Positions 29,906-38,920 of a stretch of DNA of 44,793 nt are shown in pieces. How positions within the stretch are numbered: position 1 is the first letter of the stretch; each line of letters begins with the position of its first letter. The stretch lies in the sequence record PZ445535.1; one strand, 5' to 3'. Source of the DNA: a phage. Both the position numbers and the translations under genes were made by a program. The notes beneath the pieces are model-generated. The model saw only the letters and a list, made by a program, of their open reading frames with translations, made no database searches and was not told the DNA's origin.

Positions 29906-32197
29906 TTACTTCCTGTATCTGTACATAATGTCGCCTTCGGCGGCAAGTGGGAAGCCTTTCGCCCAAATAGGTAGGTCGCACATCAGCGCGCAAAGCTCCT
30001 CGGTCGTGTAGTCGTCGGTGTCCGGCACTTCTGTGATCAATTCGTCGTGTACTGACAGGACTATTTCATAGCCCGCAGCTTCAACGCCAGGCATGGACCA
30101 TGCGAGAATATCACGGCATAACGCCTGTACGATGTTTTCCGTCAGTTTGCCGCCGTAGGTATACTGGAAGCCCCACTGGCGCGTCGTCTGATTCTCGCCC
30201 TGGTATTTGATGCGTGTGCTAGTGCGCTTCTTGCCGGTGTCTTCGTCAATCTCGGTCGTGACAGACAGAGCGATGCCGGGGTAGCTCATGATGCGCCCCG
30301 ACGGCAACTCAATTTTCAGCCACCAGCCCGGCGCATCCGGGTCGTCCCGTTCATCATCAAACGTTGGGTCGTGCTTCGCCTTCGTGCGCATGATTTTAAG
30401 CGCTTGTTTGCCGTCTGGACGCACGTTAGCACCTGCCCAGTATGATTTACCCGGATTGCGGATTGCGCACAGCACAGCGTCTTCCAGTTCGGCCCAAAAT
30501 GCGACCGTTTCCGGGTGAGACTCACGCCACATACGCTTGATTGCATCACAGGTCAGCCACACGTTCTTCGGCAGGATGTAAGTCGGTCGCTCGTCCTTCT
30601 TGCCAGGCTTCGGCGGGCGCTTCGCTTCGTTAATCTTCGCGTACTCGTAACCGCGTTTAGCCGCGGCCCAAATATGATCCGGGAACGTACCCTTCATTAC
30701 GTCAGCCATCGTGTACAGGTCCAGACCCAGGTTTTTGGCAAACTGCAAGAACGCCGCAACGCCGCCGCCGTAGCCGAGGCCCAATTCACACGCCTTACCG
30801 ATCTGGCGGAGGTCTTTGCGGTTGGCCTTGATATAATCCGGGTCGAGGCCGAACATCTTACCGGCAGTTTCGCAATAAATATCGCGTCCCGCCTTAAAGA
30901 CCATCAACGCAGTTTTCTCGCCCGCAATCCAGGCAAGGCCGCGTCCTTCCACGTTGGAGTAGTCCGCTACAACAAACTTCTTACCCTTAGCCGGGATAAT
31001 GCAGCCGCGTACGGTCGATGCTGTCAGCTTAGATATGTCGTACGCCCAGTGTGCGGTCCCGCGTAATAGGGAATTGATGCCGTTGGTGAGCATGTGCGAC
31101 CGGACCCAAAAAGCGACGTCGCTCTCGCCTTCGCGGCGCTTAATCTTCCCTTCGTGATCGTCGCTATACTCGCCACGCGCCAGGTTTTGAGGCTGGAAGC
31201 CCTTACCGGCCCAACGCAATGTACGCTTAGCCCCGCCATACTGCAGACAACCACGGCGGCGACCATCGGAAGACAGCCCATTGACGAGCGGATTATATTT
31301 GGTCGATGCCGTTGATGACGCACCGAGGCGCATTTCAATCAGCACTTTGCCCTCGTCCGGGAAGTCAGGATCCGCAAGAAGGTCGTGCAGCGTGGATTTC
31401 TGCGCATTATGGATAGTGAAAGCCGGAGCAATATCGCGCAGCAATGGCAGGAAGTCGTTGCCGGTTAGCTTACCGCCAAACTTCTCCATAGCCTCTTCTT
31501 TCAGTTCTTCTTTGTGCGCTTCCACGGCTTTAATCGCGGCGTAGGCCAGTTTGGTGTCCACGTTAAAACCGCGGTCGTTGATCAACTGGTCAATTGCCAG
31601 TATCTGGTCTTCCTTCGGAGTATTACCCCAATCCGGGATCCGCCAGTACACCTCACGCATTGCGATGATGTCGTATTTCGCATACTTGAGGAATTTGGCC
31701 CACTCTTCAGGGTGAGTCTCGCGAGTGTAGCGGCGGACTTTGTAAGTCTTCGGCGTTGGCTTACAGAATCGCTTAATCAGCGCCTTGCCTGCTTTATCTT
31801 TCGCATGTTCGGCATCAACGCCCAGTACCTGGCACTGCATATCGAGGCTGCCAGGTAATGCGTGGCGAAAGGCCATAATCATGGTGTCTTCGATCTGGCT
31901 AACCGGCAGGTCAATACCCCACTTCTCGCGGATAACCAGGCGGTCAAACAGGAGGCCGTTAGCCATGACGATTTTTGCTTTCTTGCGGACTACCGCACGC
32001 AATGCCTTACGCAGTTCACTCGGCATCTTCGGCGATTCGGTAGCGTCCCACGTCTGCACGCGGCCCTCGTCTATGGCGTAGGTGCAAATCATAATCTCGG
32101 TGGTTGGGTGCTCCGCGTAGGCGTACGCCCCTACTTTCTTCAGGTCCACCCCGCTAAATGTCTCGGTATCGAGAAACAGGCGTTCGAAGTCTTTCAT
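29906..32197 (-). CDS. DNA polymerase I family (family A) with 3'-5' exonuclease domain
   Basis: 763 aa; N-terminal exo motif LFLDTETFS; polymerase motifs including LSVHDELITEV near C-terminus; RBS GAGGA 7 nt upstream. Confidence 0.9.
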   Translation of the reverse strand: MKDFERLFLDTETFSGVDLKKVGAYAYAEHPTTEIMICTYAIDEGRVQTWDATESPKMPSELRKALRAVVRKKAKIVMANGLLFDRLVIREKWGIDLPVSQIEDTMIMAFRHALPGSLDMQCQVLGVDAEHAKDKAGKALIKRFCKPTPKTYKVRRYTRETHPEEWAKFLKYAKYDIIAMREVYWRIPDWGNTPKEDQILAIDQLINDRGFNVDTKLAYAAIKAVEAHKEELKEEAMEKFGGKLTGNDFLPLLRDIAPAFTIHNAQKSTLHDLLADPDFPDEGKVLIEMRLGASSTASTKYNPLVNGLSSDGRRRGCLQYGGAKRTLRWAGKGFQPQNLARGEYSDDHEGKIKRREGESDVAFWVRSHMLTNGINSLLRGTAHWAYDISKLTASTVRGCIIPAKGKKFVVADYSNVEGRGLAWIAGEKTALMVFKAGRDIYCETAGKMFGLDPDYIKANRKDLRQIGKACELGLGYGGGVAAFLQFAKNLGLDLYTMADVMKGTFPDHIWAAAKRGYEYAKINEAKRPPKPGKKDERPTYILPKNVWLTCDAIKRMWRESHPETVAFWAELEDAVLCAIRNPGKSYWAGANVRPDGKQALKIMRTKAKHDPTFDDERDDPDAPGWWLKIELPSGRIMSYPGIALSVTTEIDEDTGKKRTSTRIKYQGENQTTRQWGFQYTYGGKLTENIVQALCRDILAWSMPGVEAAGYEIVLSVHDELITEVPDTDDYTTEELCALMCDLPIWAKGFPLAAEGDIMYRYRK

Positions 32198-32364
32198 TGC
32201 TTAATCCTCACTACGGCGTCAGCGCTGCCGATCATGGAGAAGATGCCGTCGGACATGGCGATCTCTTCACCGTTGTTGCGAATCTCGGCAACTGTGAAAT
32301 ATTCCCCCAGTAGCTTAGACCATACTTTCATTCCGACTTTTACTTCGCTGGCTTTAATCCGCAT
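32194..32364 (-). CDS. small hypothetical protein
   Basis: 56-aa ORF MRIKASEVKVGMKVWSKLLGEYF...; stop overlaps polymerase ATG (ATGA); weak RBS; not in supplied ORF track. Confidence 0.3.
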   Translation of the reverse strand: MRIKASEVKVGMKVWSKLLGEYFTVAEIRNNGEEIAMSDGIFSMIGSADAVVRIKQ

Positions 32365-32378
32365 TTTTCATTGTCCTA

Positions 32379-32404
32379 TTAAAAAGCCCGCATTAAGCGG
32401 GCTT
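32379..32404 (-). terminator. intrinsic terminator after SSB-like gene
   Basis: On minus strand AGCCCGC-TTAAT-GCGGGCT hairpin followed by TTTTT. Confidence 0.65.
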
Positions 32405-32422
32405 GAATAGTGGGCTTTGCCC

Positions 32423-33193
32423 TTAACGGCGGCGACGTTTACGTGGCGCTTCGTCGTCGTCCTCATCTTCGTCATCGCGTGGTTTACGACGTTTGCGAGG
32501 TTTTTCGTCTTCGTCTTCGTCGTCGTCATCGCGGCGCTTGGACTTTTTGGACTTACGCGGCTTGTCGTCATCGTCATCACGACGTTTTGACTTTTTGGAC
32601 TTACGCGGGCTTTCATCTTCGTCATCGTCGCCCAGGTCTTCGTCGGAACATGAAGACCCGCCACCGCCGAAGGCTTCGCCGTCATCACGGAAGCGCATAC
32701 CCAGCAGACCACAGCCTAAGCCTTTGCCGTTGGTATTGTTCCAGGCCCAAATATCTAAGGAAACGTTGCAATAGCAACCGGAATAGATTTCCTTCCCTTC
32801 GATTTCGTCGCCGTCGATGGTCAGACCCTGCTCCGTCTGCTTCTCGCCTTCGGAAGTCTGGATGATCGGCTGTTTGAATGATTTGGCATTGATGTACAGC
32901 TTTCCTTCAAACTCTTCCGTCACTTCTTCACGCTCGTCACCATCACGAACTGCACATTCTTTCGAATCCTGTGCGTAGTGGCGGTCCATCCACTTATCGG
33001 CGTTCTTTTCAGACTTCAGCTTTTCGGTGAGCACTGCGCGTGCCGCCGCTTCCACTTTGTCCACCTGCGGATCTTCTTTATCAAGAATAATCACCGCACG
33101 AAATGCCGGTTTTTGTCCATCCTGTTTAGGGGTATCACGCTCCCAAATTTTCAGGAAGCATACACGTACATTTTTCAGGTTGACTTTAGCCAT
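32423..33193 (-). CDS. ssDNA-binding-like protein with charged repeat tail
   Basis: 256 aa from ATG 33193 (MAKVNLKNVRVCF...); RBS GAGGAA 7 nt upstream; C-terminus built from 16-aa DDDDDKPRKSKKSKRR repeats; SSB assignment is from N-terminal pattern and context only. Confidence 0.45.
   Translation of the reverse strand: MAKVNLKNVRVCFLKIWERDTPKQDGQKPAFRAVIILDKEDPQVDKVEAAARAVLTEKLKSEKNADKWMDRHYAQDSKECAVRDGDEREEVTEEFEGKLYINAKSFKQPIIQTSEGEKQTEQGLTIDGDEIEGKEIYSGCYCNVSLDIWAWNNTNGKGLGCGLLGMRFRDDGEAFGGGGSSCSDEDLGDDDEDESPRKSKKSKRRDDDDDKPRKSKKSKRRDDDDEDEDEKPRKRRKPRDDEDEDDDEAPRKRRRR
32537..32609 (-). repeat. 48-bp tandem repeat in SSB-like gene tail
   Basis: GACTTTTTGGACTTACGCGG at 32541-32560 and 32589-32608 (forward strand); encodes two DDDDDKPRKSKKSKRR units. 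Confidence 0.7.
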
Positions 33194-33257: not shown

Positions 33258-33286
33258 AATTTACTTGGTTGCGTTTCCGCGGTCAA
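33258..33286 (-). promoter_or_regulatory. candidate promoter for SSB-like gene (TTGACC-N17-TAAATT)
   Basis: Minus strand: TTGACCgcggaaacgcaaccaagTAAATT; motif copies CGCAACCAAG / AGCAACCAAG. Confidence 0.35.
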
Positions 33287-33289
33287 GCA

Positions 33290-33523
33290 TTATTTATCAA
33301 AAAGTTTTAAAATCAGGTCGAGATATTTGTGCAGCCACACCAGCGGCGGGCGGTGCACGTTGTTCTCCATCCAGTTCAAACAGGCTTCGTTGTAGCCGTC
33401 GTCCCATAGGCGGGATGGGTGGCGAATCATCCAGGCCAGCGCCGGCAGACCGCCGCAGGTATGTACTACGAATCCCAGTACCGCCAACGGCAGCACCATA
33501 ATCATTGCCAGAATCTTATTCAT
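33290..33523 (-). CDS. small membrane protein
   Basis: 77 aa; hydrophobic N-terminus MNKILAMIMVLPLAVLGFVV; RBS GAGGA 8 nt upstream. Confidence 0.4.
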   Translation of the reverse strand: MNKILAMIMVLPLAVLGFVVHTCGGLPALAWMIRHPSRLWDDGYNEACLNWMENNVHRPPLVWLHKYLDLILKLFDK

Positions 33524-34946
33524 CGTTTAAATCCTCGTCGCTTGCTTCTTGCCATTCCGGGCGCGGGTCGTCAACTGGTGCCAGGACTGGTTTCGCAGGT
33601 GCACGCGTGATTTTATCTTGCAGCTTCGCCCACACTTTCGGTTTCTCATCCTTCAGCACCTTCTCCGCGTCGGTCGGACTGATTAATGATTCCTTGTACA
33701 TCAGGTCGCGCTTGATCCGGGCCGTGGAGAATACGGCGATGACCTCGCTTTCATCCTTCCACTTACGCGCACCTTCACGACCAGCTACCAGCTTCAGGCC
33801 CAGCGCTTCGCCATCACCGGCTAACACAGCTTTGAATACGGCAGCCTCGATCGCTTTGATGTGCTGGCGCATGGTTTCCAGACCGTCGTAAGCCTTTTTC
33901 AATTCTTCCGTGGTCATTGCACCGGCCGGCGCTTCTTTCTCGCCACGCTTCGCACGTCGGGCCGCTTTCCGGGCTTCGCGGGCCATGTTCCGGTCGTGGT
34001 TTTTGCATTCTTCCTCGGTGGCAATGCTTACATCGTCGCCCAGGTCTTCGTCGGTTGCCGTTGGTGGCGTCATTGTGTCGATGGCGGCTTTAGCGCGGGC
34101 GCTACATTGATCCGCAAATCGACACCACTGACACGCATCGGCGCTCGGACGGAAGTCTGCACGGGTGAGATTCTTCTTACCCTTAGCGAAGGCATCCAGG
34201 GCGGCTACTGCGCGTTTTGCTGCGTACTTGGCGAAGATTTCCAGTGCTTCCACCGAAATATCCCACTCCGACGCCCCGCCGCAATACGGCTGGAATATGA
34301 CCAGGCGCACGGTTGTTATGTCGTACATCTTTTGCAGCTTGCGCAGCAGTCCGAGCGCATACAGCATAAGCTGTTTGTTCTCTTTCGCCTCGACCTTATG
34401 GCGTCCGGTCTTCAGGTCGCCAACAATCAGCATGTACGTGCCGTCGGTCTTCTTCATGACCATAACCATATCGGCAGTACCGAAGGTTTTAATCACCTCG
34501 CCGTCAATCTCGTAGCCTTTGTGCAGGACGCGTGTCAGATCCGCGCGCATCTCAAGCTGCACAAACTCGGCAACTTCAAGCAGCGGTCGCCAGTGGTCGA
34601 TGTACGCGTCGCACTGTTTCACCATGTCGTCAGTTACCAGGATGGCGTCCTTAGGTGCTTTCGCTGCTGCTTTAACTGGGCCTTTACCCTGATTTTCGAC
34701 GTAACACCCTTTATAGGTCTTCGCCGTTATATGGTCTTCACCCGCGATAATGCGGTTTAGCACCACTTCAGATACGGTGTGCATACTCGTACCATTGATC
34801 GCGGCTTGCCCGGATTCGTTCGGAATACCTTTCTCCACCACCAGGGCGGCAGGACACCCCATCCATTTTTTAGCGCCGGATGGGCCGAGTAATGAGTGTT
34901 CTGTGTTACTGCCGGATTGCGTCTTGCGCTTCGCTTTGATAGCCAT
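33516..34946 (-). CDS. PD-(D/E)xK exonuclease, Cas4/RecB-like, with Cys cluster
   Basis: 476 aa; nuclease motifs ADMVMV...LIVGDLKTGRHK and QLMLYALG; four-Cys cluster C...CQWCRFADQC (Fe-S type); RBS GAGGG. Confidence 0.7.
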   Translation of the reverse strand: MAIKAKRKTQSGSNTEHSLLGPSGAKKWMGCPAALVVEKGIPNESGQAAINGTSMHTVSEVVLNRIIAGEDHITAKTYKGCYVENQGKGPVKAAAKAPKDAILVTDDMVKQCDAYIDHWRPLLEVAEFVQLEMRADLTRVLHKGYEIDGEVIKTFGTADMVMVMKKTDGTYMLIVGDLKTGRHKVEAKENKQLMLYALGLLRKLQKMYDITTVRLVIFQPYCGGASEWDISVEALEIFAKYAAKRAVAALDAFAKGKKNLTRADFRPSADACQWCRFADQCSARAKAAIDTMTPPTATDEDLGDDVSIATEEECKNHDRNMAREARKAARRAKRGEKEAPAGAMTTEELKKAYDGLETMRQHIKAIEAAVFKAVLAGDGEALGLKLVAGREGARKWKDESEVIAVFSTARIKRDLMYKESLISPTDAEKVLKDEKPKVWAKLQDKITRAPAKPVLAPVDDPRPEWQEASDEDLNDE

Positions 34947-36652: not shown

Positions 36653-38920
36653 ATGATGAGAAATATAGAATTTGCGATCACACCTCCCGCAAAGAAAGGT
36701 GAATCAGCGGTAGCCCATAACCAATCCATGACTACCGCCGAGTTTTTCGAGTTTATGCTGGATGCGCCGGTGGTGTCGTCAGTTTGCATTAACGGCACTG
36801 AAGATAAGAAAGAATACGCCCGTCGTAAGCGTAAAGGCGACGGTATTGTGGCGACCACCGCCGACGGTACGCGTAAGAAGACCGGCGTTGTTGACCGTTC
36901 GATCCTGTTCTTTGACCTGGACCGCGCCGACAACCGCACACTTACCCGCTGCCGTAGGGCTTTTCGCAAGTCCGGGCTGGAGTATGTCTATCACACCACC
37001 ACCGGCGACCGCCACCCGTTGAAAGACGGCAAACGTTGCGCCCGTTTCCTTGTGCTGACAAACAAACCAGTTCCGGCTGAAGACCTGGGCCGCGCGCAGG
37101 CTGCACTGCTCGAACAACTGGGCCTTACAGACGCGGGCTTTGATGACTGTTCGAAAGACACAAACCGTCTTATGTACTTGCCACACCAGCAGGCTAAGGT
37201 CGAATGCCATGAAGGTAAACGCGCTAACGTGCGTCGTCTGCTTCGCCGGGCTGACCGGATGGGTATTGAGCAGGAGACGTTTCGCCGTGAACTGGCGCAG
37301 GGCGACGACGAGCAGATGAACGGAATCCTCGACTGGTGTTTCCAGGCTGGCTTTGAGCCGTTGCCATCCGGGCGCGGTTATGAAGTGCCGTGCCCGAACG
37401 AACATCTGCACTCTGGCGAAGGGTCAACCGCTATCATGCTTAAGGATGGCGAGATCCGTTTCAAATGTATGCACACCGGCAACGGTTGCTGTTCGGAACT
37501 GAACAAACACCAGCACCTGGCGCTACGCATGATTGGCATCCCGGATATTTATAACGTGGAACCGCACAACATGTCACGCAAACAGATCTCGGCTATCCTG
37601 CCAGGTCTGGACGATGAAGAAGTGGACGCGCAGTATGAGCACATGGTCGATCTGGTAGGTGAGGGTGAGGATTATGCTTCCTGTACCGACGCAGACCTGG
37701 AAGACGAACCGACGGCGCTGTTCTCTAAGCACGACCCGATCATCGAAGGTCTGATTAACTTCAAATCGACCTGGTACGCAGCGGGCGAGTCGAACATTGG
37801 TAAGTCCTTCTTTGTCCTGGGTCAGATGGCTGCCGTTGCCGCTGGCATTCCGTTCGGCGGCGCGAAGGTCGTCCAGTCACATTGCTTCTATTTCGATGCG
37901 GAAGGTGGCGAGGCGTCACACCAGCGTAAAGAGGCACTGCAGATTAAATATGAGCACGACCTGGATAAGCTGCACATTATCGACCTTCAGGCCCGCGGCT
38001 GGGATATTACGAGCAAATCCGGCCTGCGTGAAGTCATCAGCTTTATCAACCGCACCGCGGATGGTGAACCGGTCGGCCTGGTGGCATTCGACTCCCTTAA
38101 CCAGACAGTGGCCCTGCGATCTGCTGACGCCAAACCGTTCGATGAGAACAACGCAAGCGATATGGGTGAGATTGTCAAAGCGCTGAAGGCCATTGCGGAA
38201 AACACAGGCGGCAGTGCGGGCGTCATCCACCACCCGGCTAAGGGTGCAAACGGCAGCAGATCCCCGCGGGGGTCCGGTGCGCTACATGGCGCGGTGGATT
38301 CTGCATTCTTCCTGGAACAGCCAGACGAGAATCAGCCGGGCCAGCTAAACCTGTACCACGAAAAAGCACGTAACGGCGTCAAACAGGGTCCGCGCGGCTT
38401 CGTGCTACTGAAGTGCAAAGTATCCATTAACGAGCGCAAGTCTGACTCGTTCGAAGCGCACCAGTCCACTAACCCCGGACCGGACTTCGGCGATGTAGTT
38501 GCCGGATGGGACGTCAAGCCAATCCAGGCCACGCCGCGCGACGAGACTCTGTACCTCGTACCGGTAGCGCTGACCCCGTTCGCTATTGAACAGGCTAAGG
38601 CGGCAGGCAAGCAGGCTGTTAAGGATGAGAACACCGCAGGCCCGCGCAATGAAAAAGAGAAAGTGCTGTACGCAGCGCTCGAAGCGTTGATGGAAGAGAA
38701 TCCGGGCCACCACGGCTTCAGCAAATCGGCAATCGTCCGCAAAGCTGGGCTGGCGAAAGGCGGCACTTCGACGAAGCCAATCGACGATATGCGCGAGCGC
38801 GGAATCATCGGCTTTTACAAAGACCCGGACACCGGGGCCATTTACGGGTCGTCGAATCTGGTTATCAATTCACAAATATCTATGCAATTGACGGCGACGG
38901 ACGACGACCTTAAAGATTAA
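36653..38920 (+). CDS. DNA primase-helicase (AEP-like N-terminal domain, zinc motif, RecA-fold ATPase)
   Basis: 755 aa; N-terminal FFDLDRAD / HTTTGDRHPL acidic motifs; Cys/His cluster CPNEHLH...CMHTGNGCC; Walker A AGESNIGKS and Walker B LVAFDSL. Confidence 0.65.
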   Translation: MMRNIEFAITPPAKKGESAVAHNQSMTTAEFFEFMLDAPVVSSVCINGTEDKKEYARRKRKGDGIVATTADGTRKKTGVVDRSILFFDLDRADNRTLTRCRRAFRKSGLEYVYHTTTGDRHPLKDGKRCARFLVLTNKPVPAEDLGRAQAALLEQLGLTDAGFDDCSKDTNRLMYLPHQQAKVECHEGKRANVRRLLRRADRMGIEQETFRRELAQGDDEQMNGILDWCFQAGFEPLPSGRGYEVPCPNEHLHSGEGSTAIMLKDGEIRFKCMHTGNGCCSELNKHQHLALRMIGIPDIYNVEPHNMSRKQISAILPGLDDEEVDAQYEHMVDLVGEGEDYASCTDADLEDEPTALFSKHDPIIEGLINFKSTWYAAGESNIGKSFFVLGQMAAVAAGIPFGGAKVVQSHCFYFDAEGGEASHQRKEALQIKYEHDLDKLHIIDLQARGWDITSKSGLREVISFINRTADGEPVGLVAFDSLNQTVALRSADAKPFDENNASDMGEIVKALKAIAENTGGSAGVIHHPAKGANGSRSPRGSGALHGAVDSAFFLEQPDENQPGQLNLYHEKARNGVKQGPRGFVLLKCKVSINERKSDSFEAHQSTNPGPDFGDVVAGWDVKPIQATPRDETLYLVPVALTPFAIEQAKAAGKQAVKDENTAGPRNEKEKVLYAALEALMEENPGHHGFSKSAIVRKAGLAKGGTSTKPIDDMRERGIIGFYKDPDTGAIYGSSNLVINSQISMQLTATDDDLKD

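Follow-up and report, generated by a model that had tools for sequence, protein, structure and literature searches.

Among the closest described relatives of the protein examined here are two phage proteins that bind single-stranded DNA (SSBs), ORF6 of Enterobacter/Hafnia phage Enc34 (PDB 5ODJ, 5ODK and 5ODL) and gp2.5 of phage T7 (1JE5). The 29 C-terminal residues of Enc34 ORF6 include 16 Asp or Glu and no basic blocks, and deletion of this acidic tail leads to binding of double-stranded DNA (dsDNA) (PMC5686142). The tail of T7 gp2.5, a replication SSB with annealing activity, competes with single-stranded DNA (ssDNA) for the binding cleft and also binds replisome partners (PMC10359462; PMC5686142). 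The SSB encoded at 32423..33193 on the minus strand of phage sequence record PZ445535.1 (the window, 44,793 nucleotides in all) shares with Enc34 ORF6 the PF10991 family, an oligonucleotide/oligosaccharide-binding (OB) fold variant, a disordered C-terminal tail that opens with an acidic stretch, and a location beside a DUF2800/Cas4-like nuclease and a family A polymerase. It differs in what follows the acidic anchor: four modules of alternating acidic and basic blocks and an Arg-rich end. The T7 tail, likewise, is purely acidic and must end in Phe, whereas here the anchor residue Leu187 is internal and the C-terminus is poly-Arg. The gene itself, with 256 codons and a stop codon, is ordinary and already annotated, its orthologues in RefSeq Dhillonviruses carrying the label Gp2.5-like SSB; the tail, in contrast, is a real, non-random feature that departs from the typical purely acidic form.

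Two further systems share parts of this architecture. T4 gp32 has an N-terminal basic B-domain, with a Lys/Arg-Ser/Thr "LAST" motif, that confers cooperativity, and an acidic C-terminal A-domain that binds partners and blocks dsDNA binding. As a functional analogue from a different family, it combines basic and acidic disordered segments, but at opposite ends of the protein rather than as interleaved tandem repeats. E. coli SSB, an OB tetramer with a disordered linker and the acidic tip DDDIPF, follows the same modular logic of core, linker and acidic-hydrophobic motif; its linker, however, is Gly/Gln/Pro-rich and nearly uncharged, and its motif sits at the very C-terminus, while in the window SSB the motif lies upstream of the repeats. 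The E. coli linker controls cooperativity and phase separation (bioRxiv 10.1101/2022.01.17.476650). Direct orthologues of the window SSB are known from phages SECphi4 and SECphi18. The SECphi18 gene is 87.5% identical at the nucleotide level and lies in the same gene order, and both proteins have the same tail design, with three modules in SECphi4 and four in SECphi18, and show small differences from the window SSB in sequence and module count. They trigger Retron-Eco8 toxicity, and the SECphi4 SSB is reported to bind the retron's multicopy single-stranded DNA (msDNA) (bioRxiv 10.1101/2022.08.27.505566; PMC13402713). That work modelled residues 1-186 only, and the "flexible C-terminal residues" were neither displayed nor discussed.

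Sequence and structure searches agree on the identity of the protein. The PF10991 profile (Enc34_ssDNA-bd, formerly DUF2815) matches residues 3-193 over profile positions 2-172 of 176, scoring 110.2 bits (cut-off 26; E=1.1e-31), and PHROG 112, "Gp2.5-like ssDNA binding and annealing protein", matches the whole SSB (E=4.7e-55). Among PDB sequences, phmmer retrieves 4JG2, 4KLK and Enc34 ORF6 (5ODJ, 5ODK). An AlphaFold2 (AF2) model, which rests on a 68-sequence alignment, places an OB-fold DNA-binding core at residues 1-172 (32678..33193, minus strand). Its pLDDT is 91-98 per ten-residue block over residues 1-170, exceeds 90 for 152 residues, and drops to 40-57 past residue 172. Predicted strands span residues 2-20, 30-38, 98-105, 141-153 and 156-170, with helices at 43-59 and 62-72, and the model shows the OB-fold variant with a long alpha-helix capping the barrel that is known from 5ODJ and 1JE5. 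Foldseek returns 4KLK, 5ODL, 5ODK, 4JG2, 5ODJ and 1JE5, all with probability 1.0 (5odl_A at E=2.9e-11 and TM-target 0.75; 1je5 at E=2e-6), and no other match below E=0.3. Sequence identity is about 19% to Enc34 ORF6 and 10-14% to T7 gp2.5.

At the ssDNA-contact residues, agreement with Enc34 is partial. The Enc34 ssDNA contacts W150, Y30 and R112 align with W149, F13 and K104, while Y156 and Y37 align with the non-aromatic N155 and T21, near which W151 and W17 are found. Three escape mutations recorded in orthologues, T21P, F106V and N152H, fall at or beside ssDNA-contact positions. A preference for ssDNA may be expected by analogy, given the reported binding of Retron-Eco8 msDNA by the orthologue from SECphi4 (PMC13402713). 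Other SSB types fit poorly. For the E. coli type, there is no PF00436 match at E<=0.01, 1QVC appears in Foldseek only at E=1.3 with probability 0.07, and the C-terminus is PRKRRRR; for T4 gp32, neither Pfam, PHROG nor PDB sequences give a match, and the N-terminus MAKVNLKNV forms the first beta-strand of the OB core. The protein is almost certainly an Enc34/T7 gp2.5-type phage replication SSB, an identity that family, structural and sequence matches support strongly. The initial annotation, made from the letters of the sequence, had called it SSB-like and held that an N-terminal domain lacking OB-fold or SSB similarity would count against it; residues 1-172 instead form the OB core.

Beyond the core, residues 175-256 are predicted to be disordered, which makes the tail 82 residues long rather than the roughly 90 first proposed. 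A Gly-rich linker and conserved acidic anchor occupy residues 173-195 (EAFGGGGSSCSDEDLGDDDEDES; 32609..32677, minus strand), as supported by the family consensus, the AF2 model and the ratio of non-synonymous to synonymous polymorphism (pN/pS). The acidic segment with a hydrophobic anchor that follows the OB core and Gly linker is present as SCSDEDLGDDDEDE at residues 180-194, and AF2 places a short helix within it at 184-187. The consensus of 68 family members reads …FGGxGExAxDDDLDDxDD, and the same element recurs in distant members. A purely acidic tail with an acidic-hydrophobic tip, which is typical of these proteins but lies outside the Pfam definition, is absent from this SSB.

Past the Gly run, the sequence opens with SSCSDEDLGDDDEDES and then passes into PRKSKKSKRR and further blocks, giving four [acidic]-[PRK-basic] modules in all. 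On the minus strand, the opening stretch of the tail, FGGGGSSCSDEDLGDDDEDES, is followed by basic block 1 (PRKSKKSKRR, residues 196-205, 32579..32608), acidic block 2 (DDDDDK, residues 206-211, 32561..32578), basic block 2 (PRKSKKSKRR, residues 212-221, 32531..32560), acidic block 3 (DDDDEDEDEK, residues 222-231, 32501..32530), basic block 3 (PRKRRKPR, residues 232-239, 32477..32500), acidic block 4 (DDEDEDDDEA, residues 240-249, 32447..32476) and the closing basic block PRKRRRR (residues 250-256, 32426..32446). Charged residues make up 78% of the 77 positions that follow the Gly run (f+ 0.36, f- 0.42, net charge -4), with 28 Lys/Arg against 32 Asp/Glu. For this stretch, the charge-segregation parameter kappa is 0.548, compared with 0.107 +/- 0.046 in 1000 shuffles, none of which reaches the observed value; the OB domain is without comparable segregation. 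The pattern is non-random and far above chance. Sequence charge decoration (SCD) was discarded as a patterning measure: it is not significant (z=-1.4) because acidic and basic blocks alternate, and kappa was chosen as the appropriate statistic for that reason. Sequence and kappa test together bear out the alternating repeat tail ending in PRKRRRR that had been described at the outset. Its designation as atypical also stands, as the Enc34 study calls the acidic tail characteristic (PMC5686142) and about 90% of the sampled 50%-identity representatives have acid-only tails.

The modules are encoded by repeated DNA. A 48-bp tandem repeat at 32517..32612, in two copies with 83% identity, encodes modules 1 and 2; a repeat search delimits the copies as 32517-32564 and 32565-32612, and Tandem Repeats Finder reports 32516-32627 with 2.3 copies and 83% matches. 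A second pair of 47 nt, with spacing 54 and 81% identity, encodes modules 3 and 4 (32433..32533). The 48-bp repeat had been noticed earlier, but the span assigned to it, 32541-32608, is too short and falls inside the true one. In the same way, the proposed 16-residue unit DDDDDKPRKSKKSKRR occurs exactly only once, while its ten-residue basic half occurs exactly twice.

Such repeats might hide a recoding signal or an overlapping gene, with either -1 slippage at CC-AAA-AAG producing a truncated SSB or the +1 frame being used. AAA-AAG is present in both PRKSKKSKRR blocks, the +1 frame (32368..32712) stays open through the whole tail and beyond the normal stop, and two database proteins, P0003 and P0004, read in this frame. 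Yet the Lys-Lys dicodon varies in relatives (AAAAAG 11, AAGAAA 3, AAGAAG 2, AAAAAA 1), and these synonymous variants tell against a programmed -1 frameshift at this site. An open +1 frame is expected from sequence rich in GAY, GAR, AAR and CGN codons, and the plus-strand open reading frames (ORFs) 32410..32865 and 32493..32774 are by-products of the same repeats. Moreover, the +1 product has no family match, its start would fall inside the OB domain, and Rfam gives no matches anywhere in the window. The point at which the frame changes differs between P0003 and P0004, a pattern expected of indels or sequencing errors, and such errors in a low-complexity repeat are probably their origin. Recoding can hardly explain the tail. 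The +1-frame entries come from phage vB_EcoS-22664B1 and one assembled contig and carry a Thr/Lys/Met-rich pseudo-tail.

Judged by nucleotide identity, the source phage is an E. coli Dhillonvirus, because the SSB-gene region points to records of this genus: it is 96.7% identical to Escherichia phage Gluttony and 86-92% identical to about 150 further Dhillonvirus records, including HK578, EP23, JL1 and SECphi18. SSB genes from ten named phages and the window, 11 SSBs in total, were compared within the genus. Module number ranges from one in welsh (202 aa) and two in EP23 to three in Sloth, HK578, JL1 and TheodorHerzl, as also in SECphi4, and four in the window, Gluttony, PS2, SECphi18 and RuthEpting, with lengths of up to 264 aa. 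None of these changes disrupts the reading frame. Both ends of the module array, SDEDL[GD][DN]DDEDE as first block and EAPRKRRRR as final nine residues, remain constant, and the terminal basic block PRKRRRR is invariant in 11/11 SSBs. Among the 11 sequences, pN/pS is 0.07 in the core, 0.17 in the anchor and 0 in the last nine codons; tail codons differ synonymously, while the encoded residues are kept. The tail design is under purifying selection even as its copy number varies.

The same acid-then-basic design extends to Eiauvirus, to Jerseyvirus and Kagunavirus of the Guernseyvirinae, and to phage phiEap-2, whose OB cores are 37-63% identical to that of the window SSB. Eiauvirus eiAU, at 63% core identity, has the tail …DDDLSDDDDEPRSVSRRRSRDDEDDAPRGKSRNRRDRDEDEDDEPRERRRSVSRRRSRDDD, and phiEap-2 has two modules; single modules form the tails of Jerseyvirus (DDLEDDEDETPRRERRRNR) and Kagunavirus K1G (NDLEDDEEDEAPRRERRRR). 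Among more distant members, plain acidic tails with a hydrophobic end, the form that the Enc34 study reports for these proteins (PMC5686142), occur in APSE-7, Bordetella BIP-1, the Enc34-like Proteus phage DoubleBarrel, Streptococcus Javan255 and a Phocaeicola phage. The tail initially singled out is peculiar with respect to the SSB norm, but not to this phage, as the one-to-four-module series and its presence in further genera show. An exhaustive HMMER search of 1.84 billion 50%-identity representatives yielded 1825 family members at E<=1e-3, and a basic cluster is present in the tails of roughly a tenth of the best 147 of these 1825. Six groups of mixed tails (P0107, P0169/P0170, P0171/P0192, P0197, P0221 and P0250) have nearest core neighbours that are purely acidic, which argues for repeated origins of mixed tails in at least six further lineages. 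P0192 carries five copies of DDDDD-RGSRSRSR, and the tail of P0171 consists of 170 residues rich in Arg, Asp and Ser; a canonical …DLV tip nevertheless closes each of them.

These comparisons bear on a simpler account, in which the modules are largely neutral, slippage-prone, low-complexity expansions whose number drifts through slippage or recombination between the 48-54-bp repeats, with only the OB core, the SDEDL anchor and net acidity being important. The encoding DNA is indeed a tandem repeat, copy number varies from one to four among otherwise approximately 90%-identical phages, the one-module phage welsh is viable, two database entries (P0003 and P0004) have frameshifted tails, and no escape mutation or phenotype is assigned to the tail. 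However, neutral drift fits poorly with a terminal Arg block free of non-synonymous changes, with Pro at every acid-to-basic junction and with a near-balanced charge ratio. It also fits poorly with the recurrence of the same design across genera whose cores are about 40-60% identical and whose tails differ in sequence (Lys-rich versus Arg-rich), with repeated origin in at least six further lineages, and with a minimal form that still retains one acidic and one basic block. On this evidence, a purely neutral origin seems rather improbable.

The acidic anchor carries a motif that recurs in two other replication proteins of the window. In the SSB it reads CSDEDLGD (residues 182-189, in the first acidic block; 32627..32650, minus strand). 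The DUF2800 PD-(D/E)XK nuclease (33516..34946, minus strand; PF10926/PF12705) ends in …EASDEDLNDE* (33522..33539, minus strand) and has an internal copy, ATDEDLGD (34035..34052, minus strand). The primase-helicase (36653..38920, plus strand) ends in …ATDDDLKD*, with the core DDDL at 38900..38911, and contains CTDADLED internally (37688..37699, plus strand). The peptide forms of this putative docking motif are SSCSDEDLGDDDEDE, PEWQEASDEDLNDE and MQLTATDDDLKD. Six-frame translation of the window gives nine occurrences of the core [DE][DEA]DL, five of them in the context [AC][ST]D[EDA]DLx[DE], and these five fall only in the SSB, nuclease and primase-helicase; composition-preserving shuffles predict about 0.0001 matches per protein. 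The family A DNA polymerase PolA (29906..32197, minus strand; PF00476) lacks the motif and ends in YRYRK.

Related phages show the same arrangement. In K1G, the primase-helicase ends in …TVTEEDLE* and the nuclease in …QVSEEDLE*, while the SSB contains …SVNDLEDD…; the corresponding sequences are …TTEGDLE*, …TTEDDLE* and …SVDDLEDD… in Jersey, and …NSDLED*, …DDDLVD* and …TDDDLSDD… in eiAU, where the primase-helicase also has CTDEDLED at the place equivalent to CTDADLED. In four genera, the nuclease and the primase-helicase both have the motif at their extreme C-terminus. Even in phages with canonical tails, the nuclease C-terminus resembles the anchor of its own SSB (NDFDDV and EEFDDL in APSE-7; EVWDD* and EAWDDEDEW in DoubleBarrel). 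Together with Javan255, these two phages give anecdotal indications that the C-termini of nuclease and helicase change in step with the SSB anchor. In T7, gp2.5 and the gp4 helicase-primase both have acidic tails with a hydrophobic tip, and one polymerase surface serves the two, a parallel to the motif common to SSB, nuclease and primase-helicase here. By this analogy, the SDEDL anchor would be a partner-docking element. The polymerase, the only large replication protein without the motif, is its likely common receptor, as gp5 is in T7.

From these elements we infer how the basic blocks might act and which protein might receive the motif. The tail can be viewed as two layers. The first, an ancestral family element, comprises the Gly linker and the acidic stretch with its hydrophobic anchor (CSDEDLGDDDEDE); if it behaves as in T7 gp2.5 and Enc34 ORF6, it would fold back on the basic DNA-binding cleft, aiding discrimination against dsDNA, and would dock the SSB onto a replisome partner. 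The second, specific to the clade, consists of one to four tandem modules, each with 5-12 Asp/Glu followed by a Pro-Arg-Lys-rich block, with the Arg-rich C-terminus always last; units of 48-54 bp that were duplicated and deleted in frame gave rise to them. In the free SSB, basic blocks would find acidic partner blocks in their own tail or in other molecules, damping autoinhibition by the acidic tail and partly masking the docking motif. On DNA, the basic blocks would instead touch the backbone phosphates or acidic blocks in adjacent SSBs. This engagement would add a second contact, weak but multivalent, that favours cooperative coating, annealing of strands or bridging; it would also free the docking motif. 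Conditional exposure is attractive because the SSB is far more abundant than the nuclease and helicase bearing the same motif, and it would prevent free SSB from saturating their receptor.

Taken as a whole, the reading of a canonical SSB whose partner-docking acidic tail has gained basic blocks, identity and tail mechanism combined, has about an even chance of being correct. The mechanism alone, with basic blocks serving as tethered counter-ions, is tentative and falls somewhat short of that mark. A broader version treats the interleaved modules as a recurrent, convergent electrostatic zipper in gp2.5/Enc34-type SSBs. The motif would be masked in free protein and exposed on DNA, neighbouring molecules would be linked into a cooperative or condensed coat, and only where ssDNA is present would this very abundant protein vie with the nuclease and primase-helicase for the polymerase; this general form is doubtful at present.

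Several observations weigh against the proposed mechanism. The AF2 model gives no confident contact between tail and core, although with tail pLDDT below 57 it is uninformative on this point. Module valency cannot be critical, because phage welsh manages with one module and interior modules come and go. The defence-escape mutations of orthologues all lie in the OB core or promoter, with none in the tail, and the tail is without a known phenotype. The motif pattern was defined post hoc in this window before it was confirmed in three other genera, and its docking site could lie in the SSB cleft instead of on the polymerase. Finally, in P0107, P0171 and P0192 the mixed repeats are followed by a canonical acidic-hydrophobic tip and may be simply a linker.

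The composition of the tail also relates to the idea, raised in the initial annotation, of a condensate driver, in which multivalent tail-tail pairing and basic block-DNA pairing produce SSB-ssDNA coacervates that concentrate the replisome. Blocky, highly charged, near-neutral sequences are expected from polyampholyte physics to self-associate, and a tail that is 78% charged and near-neutral, with kappa 0.55, lies in that regime. Module number would then act as tunable valency, and E. coli SSB offers a precedent, as it phase-separates and gains cooperativity via its disordered linker (bioRxiv 10.1101/2022.01.17.476650). Nevertheless, the one-module variants of welsh, Jersey and K1G would scaffold poorly, and condensates of this electrostatic kind should be sensitive to physiological salt. 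Condensation as the main role of the tail is unlikely, but it is physically plausible, and it overlaps with the docking and counter-ion mechanism without excluding it.

A link to bacterial immunity offers another possible reason for the mixed tail, namely that it alters recognition by SSB-sensing defences such as Retron-Eco8, ShosTA, Hachiman and type III Sir2-HerA. Dhillonvirus SSBs trigger Retron-Eco8 and acquire ShosTA escape mutations (bioRxiv 10.1101/2022.08.27.505566), one triggers type III Sir2-HerA (PMC13434337), and rapid length variation is typical of arms-race loci. The recorded escape mutations T56P, N152H, F106V, T21P and F95L, however, are in the OB core, and others are upstream of the gene, none being in the tail; T56 itself is conserved in the window SSB. 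Furthermore, deletion of the T7 gp2.5 C-terminal tail leaves Retron-Eco8 activation unaffected (PMC13402713). Phages with mixed tails are still sensed, and PADLOC finds no match for the SSB or the two small ORFs beside it. An adaptation to defence is accordingly very unlikely to account for the design.

The charge-striped tail design appears to be unstudied so far. The literature covered, on Enc34, DUF2815, Dhillonvirus SSBs and phage SSB phase separation, contains no description of mixed acidic/basic SSB tails or of the shared DL motif, with one Mol Cell 2025 paper on Retron-Eco8 and SSB outside this coverage. Phage SSBs are replisome hubs and have recently been found to trigger Retron-Eco8, ShosTA, Hachiman and type III Sir2-HerA; Dhillonvirus SSBs are used experimentally as defence triggers, with their tails left out of the analyses. 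Should the tail alter how DNA is bound, cooperativity or the exchange of partners, near-identical, tractable phages provide a natural series of one to four modules for charge-patterning studies. The tail is also relevant to the expression of these SSBs as defence triggers or recombineering annealases. The DL motif on SSB, nuclease and primase-helicase, in turn, suggests a T7-like replisome with a "common docking site" in a large group of enterobacterial siphophages. If the tail is neutral filler, the finding reduces to an ordinary SSB gene.

The gene likely starts at ATG 33193, as indicated by a Shine-Dalgarno sequence, GAGGAA, just 5' of it and by homologues that all begin MAKVNLKN; its stop codon is at 32423-32425 on the minus strand. 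A longer version beginning at TTG 33286, taken from a mechanical ORF list, is unlikely on the same grounds and because the extension would span a promoter-like site. This sigma-70-like candidate, TTGACC-17-TAAATT (33258..33286, minus strand), matches the consensus at 9/12 positions, but is weak alone, with one site found against 1.1 expected in the consensus scan. In SECphi4, one of the mutations that escape Retron-Eco8 is intergenic and lies upstream of the orthologous SSB gene (bioRxiv 10.1101/2022.08.27.505566).

Just past the stop codon lies a terminator-like hairpin, AAGCCCGC-UUAAU-GCGGGCUU, followed by a U-run (32384..32404, minus strand). RNA folding of the 66-nt stretch that contains it gives -24.6 kcal/mol (z = -3.5), and some related phage records annotate a terminator at this position; a simple terminator scan does not include it in its output. 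The hairpin looks like a terminator or attenuator that separates the SSB gene from the 56-aa ORF and polymerase genes. Listed mutations include ATTAA->TTAAT, which resembles the hairpin loop; the entry stands beside a DNA-polymerase T13A escaper, apparently for the Borvo system.

The order DUF2800 nuclease, SSB, PolA is found in all relatives examined (Gluttony, EP23, HK578, eiAU, K1G, Jersey, APSE-7 and DoubleBarrel), and in the window two small ORFs intervene. A 77-aa ORF between the nuclease and SSB genes (33290-33523, minus strand; PHROG 11211) has a hydrophobic N-terminal segment, MNKILAMIMVLPLAVLGFVV…, and its orthologue is named "mature oligodendrocyte transmembrane protein" in some RefSeq records, clearly a spurious name transfer. 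A 56-aa ORF (32194-32364, minus strand), which falls in PHROG 10102 and has no Pfam match, shares 4 nt with the start of the polymerase gene. Its orthologue is the "SECphi4 56aa protein of unknown function", for which the data set of Stokar-Avihail et al. contains frameshift escape mutations. Two records labelled "Campylobacter phage A144" (MG065648.1) and "Acinetobacter phage NJ01" (OQ221563.1) are 88-90% identical at the nucleotide level to this E. coli Dhillonvirus region; their host labels look questionable, with contamination or mis-assignment as possible causes. In EP23, PS2 and Jersey, the family A polymerase has a length of about 1030-1060 aa, compared with 763 aa in this phage, and in one related Salmonella phage record it is named "intein-containing DNA polymerase precursor", which suggests that an intein is polymorphic in presence or absence in the polymerase gene adjoining the SSB gene.

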